DNA from: an uncultured Candidatus Saccharibacteria bacterium
Lineage (GTDB): Bacteria; Patescibacteriota; Minisyncoccia; Phycocordibacterales; UBA9973
Length of the DNA stretch: 64,000 bases
NCBI GenBank assembly: GCA_964563615.1
Contig: CAZLWF010000003.1
Span: 3,237-67,236, forward strand
Direction: 5' to 3'
Shown: positions 8,990 through 62,110 of the stretch, in pieces
How positions within the stretch are numbered: the first letter of the stretch is position 1
How the letters are laid out: each line of letters starts with the position of its first letter
Notes under the pieces: generated by a model
What the model saw: the letters and a program-made list of their open reading frames with translations, nothing else
Told to the model about the DNA's origin: nothing
Databases searched by the model: none
Made by a program: the position numbers and the translations under genes

Positions 8990-9110
8990 TTGCTTTGATT
9001 ATATATTTAAAGAGTACGGATATTTTTGTACTCAAAAATTCCTCGAGTTCGCGCCGCCGCACTCGCTAGTCTCTTAAAATATATAATTCAAGCAATGGGG
9101 GTAGTTAGGA

Positions 9111-9196
9111 AAAATAAAAGACACAATTTTTGTAGTGAGGACAAGCGCGACCTATCGTCTGCGCCCCGCAACAAAAAAATTGTGTTTTTTATTTTT
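9111..9196 (-). repeat. intergenic bulged-hairpin repeat, copy A
   Basis: About 21-bp outer stem (aaaataaaagacacaattttt / aaaaattgtgttttttatttt, 1 mismatch) enclosing GTAGTGAGGAC-[GCGCGAC ctatc GTCTGCGC]-CCCGCAAC. Confidence 0.7.
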
Positions 9197-9215
9197 TACT
9201 CAAATTCTTTTATAC

Positions 9216-9385
9216 AAAAGAAAAAACATGAATCTCTAAACAATCCTTATAACGCTAGGCGCCATAAGTAACACAAGTTTGAAGGATGGCCCCAGCGCTC
9301 TTAATAAATTAAGTGCCAAAGCGTCCTACGCACAAGCATAGAGATAAATCTGATTGCTTAGAGATTCATGTCCTCTCAAAGTTTC
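9216..9385 (-). ncRNA. candidate small RNA (~165 nt), unclassified
   Basis: A 14-bp perfect closing stem (9226-9239 with 9358-9371) extends by CAATC/GATTG. On the minus strand it is followed by UUUUUUCUUUU. Minus-strand promoter-like TTGGTG-N16-TATACT lies at 9393-9420. There is no ORF, and the interior is GC-rich in a 585-bp intergenic gap. Confidence 0.45.
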
Positions 9386-9574
9386 TATACAAAGTATACC
9401 GTGGTTGCAAGTACCACCAAGCCTTATTTCTAAAGGTTTTGTGGAAATGCTGTGGAAAAATAAAAATCACTGGAGTTTCTAAATCTCCTTGATTTATATG
9501 GGTAATGGTATACTTGGGAGGTCTTATTAACCTAAAAGGTTTTCACTGAGGAGAGTATAGCATATATAAACTTT

Positions 9575-10591
9575 ATGTCAAGCGATTCGAAACAACCAAT
9601 CAAGTCCGATGATCATTACCTCGATACGACCTTGCGGCCAAATACATGGGATGAATACATCGGGCAAAATCATATTAAAGAAAATCTGCAAATTCTTCTT
9701 CGCGCTGCACATGAGCGCAGTCACACTGCCGAGCATATTTTGTTTTATGGTCCACCAGGTCTCGGCAAAACCACCCTTGCACACTTAATCGCCAAAGAAA
9801 CTGGCAGGCAGATGAAAACCACTTCAGGCCCAGCGATCGAGAAAGTTGGCGACCTTGCATCCATACTCACCAATCTCTCTCCAGGTGACATTCTTTTTAT
9901 CGACGAGATTCACCGGCTCAACAAAATGATCGAGGAAGTACTCTATCCCGCCATGGAGAGCGGCATTCTCGATATCATCATCGGCAAAGGTCCTTCTGCG
10001 CGAACCATCCAACTCGATTTACCACCATTTACCCTCATCGCCGCAACAACACGCATCTCACTCCTGTCGGCTCCTCTTCGATCGAGATTCTCAGGTGGCA
10101 CCTTCCGCCTCGAGTTCTACACTGAGTCTGAAATCACCGAGATTGTGAAGCGTTCAGCAAGCATTTTGGGTGTTACGATCGATGAAGAAGCCATCGGAGA
10201 AATTGCCAAACGTAGCCGCTTTACACCACGTACCGCCAACTATTTCTTGAAACGCTGTCGCGACTATGCACAAGTCCACAAGAAAGATTTGGACAAGAAG
10301 ACTGTATTTTTGGCATTATCCCTTCTGGGCATCGATGAACTTGGTCTTTCTGAAATTGATCGAGCAGTGCTCACTGTCATCATTGAGAAATTCGGTGGTG
10401 GCCCTGTAGGACTCAACACCATCGCAGCAGCGACGAGCGAAGAAGAAGCAACTATCGAAGAAGTCGTTGAGCCATATCTCATCCAGCGAGGATTACTTGA
10501 TCGAACTGCGCGCGGCCGCACAGCAACCAAGAAAGCATATGGACACTTGGGATTTGAGTATAAAGGAGATGCACCAGAGAAATTGATATAA
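9575..10591 (+). CDS. ruvB: Holliday junction branch migration helicase RuvB
   Basis: 338 aa with LRP..WDEYIGQ, Walker A GPPGLGKTTLA, Walker B LFIDEIHRL, and the RuvB C-terminal winged helix. Confidence 0.95.
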   Translation: MSSDSKQPIKSDDHYLDTTLRPNTWDEYIGQNHIKENLQILLRAAHERSHTAEHILFYGPPGLGKTTLAHLIAKETGRQMKTTSGPAIEKVGDLASILTNLSPGDILFIDEIHRLNKMIEEVLYPAMESGILDIIIGKGPSARTIQLDLPPFTLIAATTRISLLSAPLRSRFSGGTFRLEFYTESEITEIVKRSASILGVTIDEEAIGEIAKRSRFTPRTANYFLKRCRDYAQVHKKDLDKKTVFLALSLLGIDELGLSEIDRAVLTVIIEKFGGGPVGLNTIAAATSEEEATIEEVVEPYLIQRGLLDRTARGRTATKKAYGHLGFEYKGDAPEKLI

Positions 10592-57772: not shown

Positions 57773-58693
57773 ATGAGCGCCTCTATTGATACCTTAAAGC
57801 GTCAATTCCTCGAATATATGGAAATCGAGCGCGGTTCGAGTCTCAAAACCGTCGCCAACTACTCGCACTACCTCACCAAATTCTTTGCCTTTGCCAAAAT
57901 CTCCGATGTTAGCGAGATTAGCGATGATACGATCCGAGAATTTCGACTTCACTTGAACCGTCAGGCTGGTTCGCGTACTCGCGGTCAGCGTAGTGGCACC
58001 ATGAAGAAAAATACGCAGAACTATTACTTGATTGCCGTCAGGAGATTTCTCAAATACTTGATGAAGCGAGGCATTACATCACTTTCCCCTGAACGGATAG
58101 AGCTTGCCAAAGTCGGCGCACGAGAACTTGATCTCATCGGCGGTGATGAACTTACTCGGCTCCTCGATGCACCTGCCAAAACTGATATCCAAGGGCTTCG
58201 TGATCGAGCAATCCTCGAATTATTTTTCTCCACAGGGCTACGTCTCTCTGAGCTTTGCTCGCTCAATCGAGATTTGGATTTATCAAAAGATGAGTTCTCA
58301 ATTCGCGGTAAAGGAGAGAAAGTCCGTGTGGTTTTTCTATCAGACGAAGCCAAAGATGCTATTCGTGTGTATTTAAAATTACGGAAAGACATGGATGAGC
58401 CACTTTTTACCCAGACTTCCAAGAAAAAAAGCATGGATGGTAGCACTCGCCTCTCTCCTCGATCTATCGAACGAATGGTTAGACACTATGCGATCAAAGC
58501 TGGTATATCAAAAAAGGTAACGCCCCACATCATCCGTCACTCATTCGCGACGGACCTACTATCGAATGGCGCAGACATCCGAAGTGTGCAGATGATGCTC
58601 GGTCATGCGAACATTGCAACGACGCAAGTATATACGCATGTTACAGACAGGCAACTAAAAGAAATACACAAAAAGTATCACTCAAAAAAATAA
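57773..58693 (+). CDS. XerC/XerD-family tyrosine recombinase
   Basis: 306 aa. N-terminal SAM-like core-binding domain. Catalytic residues appear in RDRAILELFFSTGLRLSEL, HIIRHSFAT, LGHANIATTQVYTHV. Confidence 0.9.
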   Translation: MSASIDTLKRQFLEYMEIERGSSLKTVANYSHYLTKFFAFAKISDVSEISDDTIREFRLHLNRQAGSRTRGQRSGTMKKNTQNYYLIAVRRFLKYLMKRGITSLSPERIELAKVGARELDLIGGDELTRLLDAPAKTDIQGLRDRAILELFFSTGLRLSELCSLNRDLDLSKDEFSIRGKGEKVRVVFLSDEAKDAIRVYLKLRKDMDEPLFTQTSKKKSMDGSTRLSPRSIERMVRHYAIKAGISKKVTPHIIRHSFATDLLSNGADIRSVQMMLGHANIATTQVYTHVTDRQLKEIHKKYHSKK

Positions 58694-58702
58694 AAAACTT
58701 TG

Positions 58703-58739
58703 TCCCGTACCATCTTGCGAATGCGAGATTGGTTCGGGA
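58703..58739 (+). terminator. long stem-loop after the recombinase gene
   Basis: tcccgtaccatcttgc gaat gcgagattggttcggga (imperfect ~16 bp) followed by tttaat. Confidence 0.6.
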
Positions 58740-58764
58740 TTTAATAGTAAGAAATAAAAAATAC

Positions 58765-59108
58765 CCCCAAATGAATGGGGGCATTAAATAATTAACTCCA
58801 GATCAGATCATTTTTTTGCGGTAGTCCCGGGTTTTCCGGTGCGGGATATGCCGCGCAGCGAGTGTACAATTTTCTGCTTACTCCTACATTATTACGTTGG
58901 TACGTACGTTAGGCTCGCCTAGGCCACGGAGAGACGGTTAGATTTTTAAACCTGTTTTTCTGCTTGCATGGCCGGGTTTATCCGGTGGCAGCAGTGCCGG
59001 CGATGTGATTTACGAACATGAACATTTTTTGCTGAAGGATGCGTCCGCCATCCTTGGGGCCAGCGCGGCCCGGTGCCGAATTGAACTGTTTCATAGGCTT
59101 TATGATTT
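58765..59108 (-). ncRNA. candidate ~345-nt GC-rich structured RNA, unclassified (weak RNase P RNA-like features)
   Basis: Minus-strand promoter TTGACA-N17-TATGAT (59115-59143). Many local GC helices, e.g. AAGGAUG..CAUCCUU, GGGCC..GGCCC, UCCCG..CGGGA, CUGCU..AGCAG. Minus-strand terminator GCCCCC auucauuu GGGGGU + UUUUUU at 58765-58790. The only overlapping ORF (80 aa) looks non-coding. Confidence 0.6.
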
Positions 59109-59114
59109 GTAAGT

Positions 59115-59143
59115 ATCATATACCAAACAAGTTGATTTGTCAA
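59115..59143 (-). promoter_or_regulatory. sigma-70-type promoter TTGACA-17-TATGAT
   Basis: Perfect -35 hexamer at 59138-59143 and -10 at 59115-59120 (minus strand). Confidence 0.6.
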
Positions 59144-59531
59144 GTGCCTGACAATCTGCAAAAAAATAGACTTATTTTGTAAGGCCATCTGGCAGTTTTG
59201 ACTTAGATAGACATTAACATGCCGTCATACTTATGGATGCAGAAGGTTTTCCTTCTGTCGCCGTAGTGCCGTCTTGTGCGCCACTTTTTGAACGTCTCTT
59301 TTTTCTGGGTTTTATATCTGGATCAAACTCTTGTTTAAATATTTTGAACTTCTTTTTGCCTGGCATTAAATCAGCCACCATAAATGATTCAGTTTGATTT
59401 TGCATAGAGTATTTTTTAAGAACGATGAAAAATGTCTAGGAACGAGTATACCTCTTTTATATAAAATGAAAAGTCTCCTCTGTGCATATATGCACTTCAT
59501 CTAATGTATGTCATGCGCTATACTAGTAGTA

Positions 59532-60179
59532 ATGGATTATTCTTCTGCGAAAAAATATTTTCAACGAGCGTATCGTACGGGTAGTGATTTCTGGACATTG
59601 ATGCCGTACAAATTAAAAGGCCGCGATTTGCTTCGCTACTTACCTGCCGGATCAATGCTACTCGATGTTGGTTCGGGTCGTGGCAGATTCCCGCTTGAGC
59701 TAGCACGCTTGGGCTACAAAGTGATTGGACTCGACTACGTGAAGAAAATAGTTACTGACAATAATGAAGAAGTGCGTGTGAATGACATGGCAAGCTCTCT
59801 TCGTTTTGTCGAAGGCAATGCACTCGATATTCCCTTTACTGATGCGTCGTTTGATGGAGTCTTGGACTTTGGACTCATGCAGCATTTCTATCCGCCTGAC
59901 CGCATAACCTATGTTCGAGAAATCAATCGTGTACTCAAGCCTGGTGGCTATGCACTCCTCGTGCTTCTCTCTCGCGAGACAACGTCATATCTTACCTGGA
60001 CTCCGAAGGCACACGCAGATGCTGAGTATGACTATGAAGATGTGCATTATCACTTCTTTACGCCAGAAGAAATCATGGAACTCTTTGGTGAGGAATATGC
60101 GCTCATGAGTAAACGTATCGAATATATTGAAGGTCGCGAAAGTCTCGCCTACCTCGTCATGCTACTTAGGAAAAAATAA
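59532..60179 (+). CDS. class I SAM-dependent methyltransferase
   Basis: Motif I LLDVGSGRGRFPLELARLGYKVIGLD and post-I/II motifs. The start is probably MDYSSAKKYF (59532), only ~8 nt after a TATACT -10-like hexamer. The track start is 59508. Confidence 0.8.
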   Translation: MDYSSAKKYFQRAYRTGSDFWTLMPYKLKGRDLLRYLPAGSMLLDVGSGRGRFPLELARLGYKVIGLDYVKKIVTDNNEEVRVNDMASSLRFVEGNALDIPFTDASFDGVLDFGLMQHFYPPDRITYVREINRVLKPGGYALLVLLSRETTSYLTWTPKAHADAEYDYEDVHYHFFTPEEIMELFGEEYALMSKRIEYIEGRESLAYLVMLLRKK

Positions 60180-60180
60180 A

Positions 60181-60203
60181 AACCCGAACATGTTGTTCGG
60201 GTT
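60181..60203 (+). terminator. intrinsic terminator (acccgaaca tgt tgttcgggt)
   Basis: 9-bp stem immediately after the methyltransferase stop, followed by ttt. Confidence 0.7.
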
Positions 60204-60484
60204 TCGCACATTATAATTTTTACTTCACTGATATGTCTAGTTAGTTGCCTAGACATTCCATAGAGGGTTGGATATGTACTCCTCGTTAGAGTTTTCATAC
60301 TACTAGTCACTGACTAAGTATTGTATAGATATAAATCAATACAACAACCAATAACTGCTATGGCCCTATATGCGAACTTTGCGTCGGGTCTTTCTTTGCT
60401 TCCTTTAGAACTTTATTTACTGTTGGTACAAGTGTATCATAGAATAAATATTCTGTCAAGTTACTTATATTTCTTTGAGGGAAT

Positions 60485-60856
60485 AAAAAAGGGTCACGGT
60501 ACATTTGTCCGGACCCCATTACGCAACTCGGATACGAAGCATGTGCTTCAGTCGGAGTTGCAAGTTGTAGGAGGATTGCTCTTCACCCCTCCATTTTTCA
60601 TAATTGCTAACCAAACCCCCACCGTCCTTTTGGGAAATTCCCTCAAACGAAAGAGTGTCGTACTTGCTGCAAATCTTTTGGTTGCAATGTTTTGCCGGGA
60701 TTTAACCACGGCTCTCGTAGTGCGTGCTCACCCATTACATCTTTTGATGCGGTAGGCTGCTACGCTTGTAGATTACTGCCGAAGATCGATCGTTCGGCAA
60801 ACTGCTGAATGCGCCACTAGCTGCTTCAATAGCGGCTGCGCGTGCTAAGAACTATT
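60485..60856 (-). ncRNA. candidate ~370-nt structured RNA, unclassified
   Basis: Minus-strand promoter TTGACA-N16-TAAGAT (60863-60890). GC-rich helices, e.g. GCAACUCCGACUGAAGC acau GCUUCGUAUCCGAGUUGC, GGAGG..CCUCC, GCCGAACGAUCGAUCUUCGGC. Terminator GGGUCCGG..CCGUGACCC + U6 at 60485-60516. Confidence 0.55.
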
Positions 60857-60862
60857 TGCTAT

Positions 60863-60890
60863 ATCTTAGCATATGATAATATATTGTCAA
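60863..60890 (-). promoter_or_regulatory. sigma-70-type promoter TTGACA-16-TAAGAT
   Basis: Perfect -35 at 60885-60890 (minus strand). Confidence 0.55.
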
Positions 60891-60899
60891 GTTTTCTGA

Positions 60900-61027
60900 A
60901 TAATAAAAGCCCCCTTCGTGTAGAAGGGGGCTTTAGTAATCAGTAATCAAGTCCGGTAATGCTGGGCGGGCGTGTATATAAGCGCTAGGTAGCATAATAT
61001 CCGACAGGTGGTAATGAACTAATGAAC
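60900..61027 (-). ncRNA. candidate ~130-nt small RNA, unclassified
   Basis: Minus-strand promoter TTGACA-N16-TATATT (61034-61061). 9-bp GC terminator AGCCCCCUU..AAGGGGGCU + UUUUAUU at 60902-60932. No ORF. Confidence 0.5.
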
Positions 61028-61033
61028 CCAAGA

Positions 61034-61061
61034 AATATAGCATACTATAATATTTTGTCAA
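61034..61061 (-). promoter_or_regulatory. sigma-70-type promoter TTGACA-16-TATATT
   Basis: Perfect -35 at 61056-61061 (minus strand). Confidence 0.55.
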
Positions 61062-61138
61062 TGACCATGTGCTAAAATGAAACCGAGCTTTATTTGCTAT
61101 ACTGTTTTCATAATTTTTAATTATTAATTTTTTACCAA

Positions 61139-61921
61139 ATGAGAATTATTTCCTGGAACACCAATGGTATACGTGGGACACACAAAGCGGGACTTTTCTT
61201 GCTACTTTTTGCCAAATACAAGCCTGATATGGTTTGTATACAAGAAACCAAAGCTGAGGCAGAACAATTGCCTGATGAAATTAGAAATATCCCTTCCTAC
61301 CAAGCATTCTTCTCTCACTCCAAAGGTCGCAAAGGTTACAGTGGTGTTGGAACGTATGCAAAAATAAAAACCACGAGCACGCATGTCGGATTTACGGTAA
61401 AAGATCTCGATGATGAAGGTCGGACGATGGTGACTTATTTTGATTCACCCGTAGGTGAAGTTGCGCTCATCAATTGTTACTTCCCTAACGGTGGTGGTGG
61501 TCCAGTACGACTTGAATTCAAGCTCAAGTTCTATGATGAATTTCTTAAATTTATCGATCGACTTCGCAAAGAAGGTAAGAAAGTTATTTTCTGTGGTGAT
61601 GTCAATACGGCTCATGAAGAGATCGATCTCGCGAGGCCAAAAGCCAATGAAGAGAATACTGGCTTCCTCCCTATCGAGCGCGCCTGGATCGATGAAGTGA
61701 TAGCTCATGGCTATGTCGATGTCTTTCGTCATAAATATCCAACCAAGGCCGATGCCTATACCTACTGGGACCAAAAGACTGCAGCTCGTGACCGCAATGT
61801 CGGCTGGCGGATTGATTACTTCTTCGTTTCTCCGGAACTCGTCAAAGATATCAAGGCAACGAGTATTCTCTCGGATTACTATGGCAGTGATCACTGCCCG
61901 ATACTGCTTGACATATTTTAG
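61139..61921 (+). CDS. xth: exodeoxyribonuclease III
   Basis: 260 aa. MRIISWNTNGIR, CIQETK, GDVNTAHEEIDL, SDHCPILLDI, the EEP-family Xth motifs. Confidence 0.9.
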   Translation: MRIISWNTNGIRGTHKAGLFLLLFAKYKPDMVCIQETKAEAEQLPDEIRNIPSYQAFFSHSKGRKGYSGVGTYAKIKTTSTHVGFTVKDLDDEGRTMVTYFDSPVGEVALINCYFPNGGGGPVRLEFKLKFYDEFLKFIDRLRKEGKKVIFCGDVNTAHEEIDLARPKANEENTGFLPIERAWIDEVIAHGYVDVFRHKYPTKADAYTYWDQKTAARDRNVGWRIDYFFVSPELVKDIKATSILSDYYGSDHCPILLDIF

Positions 61922-61958: not shown

Positions 61959-62110
61959 ATTACCTCAGGATGTTTGACTACCCAAGAGCTTCTCTTAATG
62001 GCCCGAGGACTTCTGTTGCAAGACGGGAATTATTAGAAAGACGGCCGAATTTGTTAGAAGTCTTCGAAATTATAGAAGCAGAAATATCTTCAGTTACAGT
62101 TTAATAACAA

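Follow-up and report, generated by a model that had tools for sequence, protein, structure and literature searches.

What does a tightly packed genome keep in a stretch of almost one kilobase that holds no protein gene? We have addressed this question for the gap at 60180-61138 (~960 bp) of a 64-kb window, the window being the whole stretch of DNA analysed, where the gap lies between a methyltransferase gene and xth, the gene of exodeoxyribonuclease III. Of the 55 spacers that separate open reading frames (ORFs) in the window, 39 do not exceed 150 bp and the median length is 65 bp, in agreement with the preliminary description of this DNA, which had placed most gaps below 150 bp. The gap sequence is the same in four independent assemblies, and thus, it is not an assembly artefact. 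It carries three minus-strand promoter-to-terminator units arranged head to tail, here named U1, U2, and U3, and the adjacent gap holds a sister unit, U4. Two tandem units had been reported before; the promoters and terminators of both are present, but the count is three, since U3 had been overlooked. None of the four units belongs to a described RNA family, and we consider it probable that U1-U3 and U4 are clade- or strain-specific genes for structured noncoding RNAs (ncRNAs), each independently transcribed from promoter to terminator and acting as a discrete RNA.

Transcription units on the minus strand

Promoters and terminators were located by a consensus scan plus reading of the sequence, and the transcription start of U1 was deduced from the position of its -10 box. 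The units comprise the following features (L followed by a number denotes a related locus):

61034-61061, minus strand: U1 promoter, TTGACA-16-TATATT with a TG-extended -10, 11 of 12 consensus matches
60897-61027, minus strand: predicted U1 RNA, ~128 nt, one long irregular hairpin followed by the terminator
60934-60906, minus strand: U1 terminator, a 12-bp G+C-rich hairpin and then a U-tract
60863-60890, minus strand: U2 promoter, TTGACA-16-TAAGAT with a TG-extended -10
60483-60856, minus strand: predicted U2 RNA, ~375 nt, multi-helix
~60517-60490, minus strand: U2 terminator hairpin, with U6 directly after it
60431-60459, minus strand: U3 promoter, TTGACA-17-TACACT with a TG-extended -10, kept in L168, L174, L167, and L176
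60170-60424, minus strand: predicted U3 RNA, ~250 nt, with an A/U-rich 5' leader, helices P1 and P2, and interchangeable inner hairpins
60205-60179, minus strand: U3 terminator, abutting the methyltransferase stop codon
59143-59115, minus strand: U4 promoter, TTGACA-17-TATGAT
58752-59143, minus strand: U4, the sister unit in the adjacent gap, with a predicted RNA of ~355 nt
58785-58760, minus strand: U4 terminator
60466-61081, minus strand: the U1+U2 module, ~615 bp, an indel relative to every close relative

The promoters of U1, U2, and U3 match the consensus at 10-11 of 12 positions, each with a TG-extended -10, and that of U2 is 88% identical to that of U1 over 24 nt. A perfect TTGACA-N16-18-TAnnnT arrangement is found only 10 times in the window, counting both strands, and four of these 10 head U1-U4, on one strand and within 2.4 kb; according to our Poisson estimate, ~0.19 such promoters would be expected in 2.45 kb of one strand. 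The U1 promoter stands back-to-back with the promoter region of xth. U-tracts follow hairpins on the minus strand only, the units do not overlap one another in antisense, and the four of them pack ~1.1 kb of RNA genes into ~2.4 kb.

The folding energies were expressed as z-scores of the minimum free energy (MFE) against dinucleotide shuffles, using eight coding sequences as controls. U2 has an MFE of -123.2 (z -3.38), and the z-scores of U1, U3, and U4 are -3.17, -3.56, and -2.7, respectively; in a second run the four units span -2.5 to -3.9 (U1 -3.7, U4 -2.5). The coding controls range from -0.7 to +1.1. The long, well-paired helices that the preliminary description had noted in the longer RNA are borne out by these values, which lie between -3.2 and -3.9 for U1-U3, and the imperfect hairpin it had pointed out in U2 is present in the MFE fold at 60522-60562, together with a 12-bp long-range helix formed by AUUGCAACCAAA and UUUGGUUAGCAAU. 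U1 contains two short perfect tandem duplications, i.e., (GUUCAUUA)x2 at its 5' end (61012-61027) and (GAUUACU)x2 before the terminator (60935-60949). The G+C content is 0.45-0.53 across the units (0.47 in U2 and up to 0.53 in U4), compared with ~0.31-0.33 in ordinary spacers.

The presence of promoters, terminators, and folds leads us to infer that the units are expressed. Near-consensus sigma-70 promoters with an extended -10, combined with intrinsic terminators, would yield discrete, stable, and strongly expressed RNAs with compact multi-helix folds.

Conservation of U3 and U4 within the clade

Whether the spacer is conserved in relatives has a divided answer. The preliminary description had considered that it might prove to be unconserved, which holds for U1 and U2, absent from the relatives and without homologue, but not for U3, in the same gap, nor for U4, both of which are kept with compensatory changes.

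The comparison of U3 used four variants (the window, L176, L174, and L168), which are only ~65% alike. The promoter and the A/U-rich leader are retained, and the interior is a mosaic. Helix P1 appears as CCC/GGG, CCCC/GGGG, or CUCCC/GGGAG; the closing helix P2 is found in the same place as CCAUAG/CUAUGG, CCGGG/CCUCGG, or CCGAG/CUCGG; and the terminator is formed by CCCGAAC/GUUCGGG or by CCCGGAA/UUCCGGG. The hairpins enclosed within P2 are cleanly swapped or deleted.

Five variants of U4 were compared, and all of them share an unchanged 9-bp helix, whose two sides lie ~210 nt from each other. A hairpin at a fixed position is built from AAGGAUG..CAUCCUU, GAAAAUG..CAUUUUU, or CUCAG..CUGAG, a second one from CCGG..CCGG or AAAGC..GCUUU, and at a third site CGU..ACG is replaced by CGA..UCG. 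In an RNAalifold consensus, 7 of 44 predicted pairs are changed on both sides, the alignment being imperfect. Profile searches detected neither U3 nor U4 outside a narrow Nomurabacteria clade. These comparisons provide good qualitative evidence, not statistical proof, that U3 and U4 are fast-evolving, clade-specific structured RNAs whose helices appear to be kept by selection.

U1 and U2 as a strain-specific module

The host is a Nomurabacteria-type Paceibacterium. Metagenome-assembled genomes of Nomurabacteria, Yonathbacteria, and other Paceibacteria encode proteins with 59-70% identity to its Xth. The 90% cluster of this Xth also contains QQR50622.1, which is encoded in CP064958.1, a complete genome of 808 kb named "Candidatus Nomurabacteria bacterium". 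The surroundings of the units in the window are as follows:

58694-59507: neighbouring gap of 815 bp that holds U4, from xer to the methyltransferase gene
59508-60179, plus strand: ORF of a class I S-adenosylmethionine (SAM)-methyltransferase (Pfam Methyltransf_11, 1.6e-21)
61082-61138, plus strand: conserved xth promoter and leader segment, near-identical among close relatives
61139-61921, plus strand: xth, exodeoxyribonuclease III (Pfam Exo_endo_phos, 7.7e-30)

Seven further contigs of the same clade were recovered, in which the flanking genes are 84-93% identical in DNA. The spacer between the methyltransferase gene and xth is 438 bp long in L168, L169, and L170 and 359 bp long in L174 and L167, compared with 960 bp in the window. 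The relatives keep ~57 bp upstream of xth and then, directly after ...GTATAGCAAAT, present a U3-type promoter. Since they pass straight from the one to the other, U1+U2 (~61081-60466) is a ~615-bp indel and, on this sequence comparison, a strain-specific accessory module of that size. The turnover and the presence/absence variation of the units are extreme when compared with the flanking genes, and it is probable that units have been acquired, lost, and exchanged when recombination took place in the conserved genes on either side or in the near-identical promoters.

Loci near Xth relatives, 80 from genomes and 80 from metagenomes, were searched with blastn, nhmmer, and profile-nhmmer, and no homologue of U1-U4 was found in them outside the clade of at least 90% identity. 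Inside the window the units have no paralogues, and no repeats or att/dif-like sites bound them. The argument for U1 and U2 as RNA genes is built on their promoters, their terminators, the stability of their folds, their G+C content, the compactness of the genome, and the example that U3 and U4 give of the same design.

The xer-xth locus across Paceibacteria

The genes xer and xth, in this order, form a conserved plus-strand pair in 95 related loci (L001-L166), and in ~40 of them no more than 4-60 bp separate the two. The remaining loci have 0.1-3 kb of variable cargo in between, with methyltransferases among it. In L019 a methyltransferase gene fits tightly between xer and xth, without long spacers. 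Since xer and xth are usually 4-60 bp apart, and since a methyltransferase gene can fit tightly between them, the two ORF-free spacers of the window are lineage-specific additions at a variable spot.

The xer-xth interval of L002, L006, L003, L095, and L165 also contains stretches that lack ORFs and have promoters or terminators on the minus strand. A strong minus-strand promoter located 37-78 bp upstream of xth is common to the window, L168/L174, L166, and L002, and the RNAs behind it differ. The locus L166, whose Xth is 70% identical, is arranged as a methyltransferase gene, an 862-bp ORF-free spacer with a strong minus-strand promoter beside xth, and xth itself. The units of this spacer fold well (z -2.4 to -4.8) and have no sequence similarity to U1-U3.

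The protein encoded by xer is 57-79% identical across Paceibacteria, and its gene is always next to xth, so that it looks like a conserved housekeeping copy.

A different kind of insert was observed at xth itself. At least nine Paceibacteria loci have 106-126 bp inserted at the very start of this gene, and the window lacks this insert. The first 21-24 nt of xth are duplicated at its boundary, and it contains a covarying hairpin (7 of 12 pairs changed on both sides, the loop of the long forms being CGAAUGC), after which come an AT-rich stretch and a new start of xth. Rfam gave no match in L165 and L168, the two insert-bearing loci that were scanned. The inserts are located at:

L113:544-776 (two tandem copies)
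L094:754-900
L097:4875-5021
L165:1374-1520
L003:5892-6021
L168:3877-4021
also in L169, L170, and L173

In L035:3899-6001 (2.1 kb) and L089:3935-5001 (1.07 kb), larger inserts with ORFs are preceded by an incomplete upstream copy of the 5' end of xth and followed by the intact gene. This suggests that insertion or recombination has occurred repeatedly at the xth start. The spacer on the 3' side of xth is also variable, since it comprises ~124 bp in the window (61981-62103) and ~500 bp of unrelated sequence in L168:4891-5387 (CP064958.1).

Points against RNA genes and alternative explanations

Several results weigh against the interpretation of the units as RNA genes. U1 and U2 are missing from every close relative recovered, and no homologue of either was found in 176 related loci, in phage or plasmid collections (blastn), in viral contigs (five exact-motif scans), or, by translation, among 5.8 billion proteins; because no homologue was found, there is no sign of selection on U1 or U2. 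The covariation in U3 and U4 comes from 4-5 distinct sequences that are related and mosaic, and whose alignments were partly anchored by hand. The antisense strands reach z-scores as low as those of the sense strands, and z-scores cannot tell RNA structure from palindromes at the DNA level; since the antisense scores are as good, the strand was assigned by the promoters and U-tracts and not by folding energies. Finally, we found no target, partner protein, or conserved single-stranded motif, and pairing of the units with one another or with neighbouring 5' regions was not significant in RNAduplex, which is a crude method for this purpose.

The absence of U1 and U2 from relatives with 84-93% identical flanks and from every collection searched, at a locus that gathers insertions in many lineages, also fits the possibility that both are non-functional insertion remnants at the xer-xth spot, left by a decayed gene or a mobile-element fragment. 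We consider this explanation unlikely. No frame has protein similarity, and two perfect -35 boxes with an extended -10, each accompanied by a strong terminator, would hardly be expected in decaying DNA. Moreover, U1 and U2 have z-scores of -3.2 and -3.7, compared with ~0 in coding DNA, and a raised G+C content, U3 and U4 share their design and show structural conservation, and the genome is very compact.

The search for a protein gene in the gap gave the same picture in several ways. The preliminary description had seen no credible ORF there, and this observation stands: the longest sense-strand ORFs have 53 amino acids, and none of the nine short ORFs that were searched matches Pfam. A spurious ORF of 144 amino acids on the plus strand (60321-60755), for which gene finders call a hypothetical protein of 131 amino acids, runs antisense to the 3' part of U2, the U2 terminator, and the U3 promoter; it has no Pfam domain, and its only match among 5.8 billion proteins is itself. 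The 22 six-frame segments from 60466-61085, once concatenated, did not retrieve any homologue in the protein search either. A decayed protein gene, which the preliminary description had entertained, was therefore rejected, as neither the short ORFs, nor the antisense ORF, nor the six-frame segments left a trace in the Pfam and protein searches. A phage or plasmid origin was likewise rejected, the blastn searches and the motif scans of viral contigs having given no match.

It seems improbable that we are dealing with miniature mobile DNA elements or with recombination cassettes, in which case the folds would reflect DNA palindromes and not RNA function. The low z-scores on both strands would agree with such elements, as would the presence/absence pattern between strains, the adjacent gene for an Xer-type recombinase, and the recurrence of a different structured insert of 106-126 bp at the xth start in relatives. 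Nevertheless, neither the 64-kb window nor the 176 loci contain a second copy, the borders have no terminal inverted repeats, target duplications, or att/dif-like repeats, and the xth start is not duplicated inside the gap of the window.

Each unit contains short ORFs, and thus, the units could in principle be mRNAs for very small peptides, such as the 20-amino acid peptide MLPSAYIHARPALPDLITDY of U1, whose stop codon abuts the terminator; the neighbouring 63-amino acid ORF (59214-59405, minus strand) provides an example of a fast-evolving small gene. We regard this as quite improbable, given that no suitably spaced Shine-Dalgarno sequence could be read before the candidate start codons, that the U3 ORFs are not conserved between variants, one of them running through the terminator, that the protein searches gave no homologue, and that the length and the high degree of structure of the RNAs are out of proportion to such ORFs. 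No short hydrophobic ORF is found among the ORF translations.

Tests against known RNA families

The preliminary description could not assign the RNAs to any family, and the same outcome was reached with dedicated tools. Rfam 15 gave no match in the whole window at gathering thresholds and only terminator-driven chance matches in 58600-61300 at E <= 10, and ARAGORN predicted 0 transfer RNA (tRNA) or transfer-messenger RNA (tmRNA) genes. As a positive control, Rfam detected a standard tmRNA with 134 bits at L166:8061-8431 (minus strand), ~3 kb from xth.

The main housekeeping families were discarded individually. For tmRNA (RF00023), neither Rfam nor ARAGORN gave a match, and the GGUUAAAUCCCGG hairpin lies in the middle of the molecule, without an acceptor strand and CCA after it. 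The P4 core of RNase P RNA is recognized by the strings GGAAAGUCC ... ACAGAA..GGCUUA. These strings are absent from U1-U4, and Rfam gave no match to RNase P RNA (RF00010/RF00011). For 6S RNA (RF00013) there was no match at E <= 10; U2 and U3 have multi-branched MFE folds, and U1 does not reach the required length. For the RNA of the signal recognition particle (SRP; RF00169/RF01854), there was no Rfam match and no GGAAGCAGC-type motif in the sequence.

Strings reminiscent of ribosomal RNA (rRNA) or RNase P had been noticed in U2, and this likeness did not hold. Three U2 strings seemed colinear with 16S helices, but a 16S-derived fragment was rejected because the shuffle tests placed them at chance level: U2 has 9 ungapped matches (score >=9) to the 16S rRNA of E. 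coli, compared with 11.05 +/- 3.4 in 40 shuffles, and gapped local alignment gave z = 0.9. The small-subunit rRNA model did not match at E <= 10, and the RNase P motifs are absent. Two further types of locus were discarded: a CRISPR, TIGR, or type III antitoxin array, since only two-copy repeats of 7-8 nt are present, and a type I toxin-antitoxin locus, since there is neither a hydrophobic short ORF nor an antisense overlap between units.

The sizes of 128-375 nt, the strong promoters, and the rRNA-like strings might point to housekeeping RNAs (tmRNA, RNase P, 6S, SRP) that have diverged strongly, or to rRNA-derived fragments. Such an origin of the units is very improbable in view of the above results, of the normal detection of tmRNA in a relative, of the absence of P4 strings, of the SRP GGAA/AGCAGC motif, and of a tRNA-like 3' end with CCA, and of the fact that such an RNA would not be missing from a relative that is 90% identical.

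Proposed mode of action

Taking U1-U4 as genes for discrete structured RNAs, the arrangement of the locus indicates how they might work. The units are very probably not mRNAs, and a role as leaders is discarded, since the minus strand has no gene after them. As there is nothing downstream to regulate, and no antisense overlap with genes beyond the shared terminator, they would most likely act in trans as free-standing structured RNAs, either protein-binding or riboregulatory.

A broader proposal, which we put forward only as a doubtful speculation, is that the xer-xth junction is a dedicated platform for exchangeable, strongly expressed RNA cassettes. The hairpins swapped on a conserved scaffold would then be specificity modules with a strain-specific function, such as defence, interference, or host interaction, and the same recombination machinery would have left its mark in the mini-insert at the xth start.

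Other elements in the window

The 63-amino acid ORF at 59214-59405 (minus strand) lies just upstream of U4. In close relatives its promoter and 5' region are kept (85-88% identity), and the body of the ORF (63-69 amino acids) is wholly different. This small ORF is a further hypervariable element of the same island.

Elsewhere in the window, a consensus promoter (TTGACA-16-TATACT, TG-extended) at 9581-9554 on the minus strand heads a ~590-bp stretch (8990-9581) that has hairpin/T-run sites and no ORF of 90 amino acids or more. This stretch may be a fifth ncRNA gene in the style of U1-U4.

Comparison with known systems

Candidate-phyla-radiation bacteria have very small and tightly packed genomes. 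A full-text search of the literature found no description of such RNAs in Patescibacteria and almost nothing on ncRNAs of the candidate phyla radiation. The units combine consensus promoters, the lack of an Rfam family, and a turnover much faster than that of the flanking genes. Provided that expression takes place, no clade-specific structured RNAs of Nomurabacteria would have been described before them, and they would illustrate how RNA genes can form part of the accessory content of a strain. The locus also offers a natural comparison in one place, between the conserved architecture with swapped hairpins of U3 and U4 and the strain-specific U1 and U2.

Variable cargo beside a tyrosine-recombinase gene is typical of Xer-dependent modules (IMEX elements, pdif modules) and of integron cassettes. 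The units resemble them in being discrete and in being gained or lost between strains next to a recombinase gene. They differ in that no dif-, att-, or attC-like repeats bound them, in that xer seems to be the housekeeping copy, and in that the cargo consists of RNA genes with their own promoters.

6S RNA is a small, abundant, stand-alone RNA that has a strong promoter and a poorly conserved sequence, so that its homologues are often missed, and the units would be similar to it in these features. Their predicted folds do not show the long rod with a central bubble of 6S RNA, the U1 hairpin spans only ~94 nt, and the units are absent from near relatives.

Several large structured ncRNAs, i.e., the OLE, GOLLD, HEARO, ROOL, and raiA classes, were discovered as G+C-rich intergenic regions. 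The units are similar to these classes in their lack of an ORF, their raised G+C content, their length of up to several hundred nucleotides, and their many helices, and the variable peripheral hairpins around a conserved core are also found in U3 and U4. In contrast to these classes, the units have no Rfam match, they are confined to one narrow clade (U3 and U4) or one strain (U1 and U2) instead of being spread over many genera, and their support from covariation is so far thin.

The orphan small RNAs that other bacteria encode in strain-variable spacers have the same sigma-70-type promoter, intrinsic terminator, stable fold, and lack of an ORF, as well as the same narrow range and presence/absence variation between strains. 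What distinguishes the present case from them is the host, a member of the Patescibacteria (candidate phyla radiation) with a genome of ~0.8 Mb, the head-to-tail arrangement of four units, and the unusually large, multi-domain RNAs of 355-375 nt predicted for U2 and U4.

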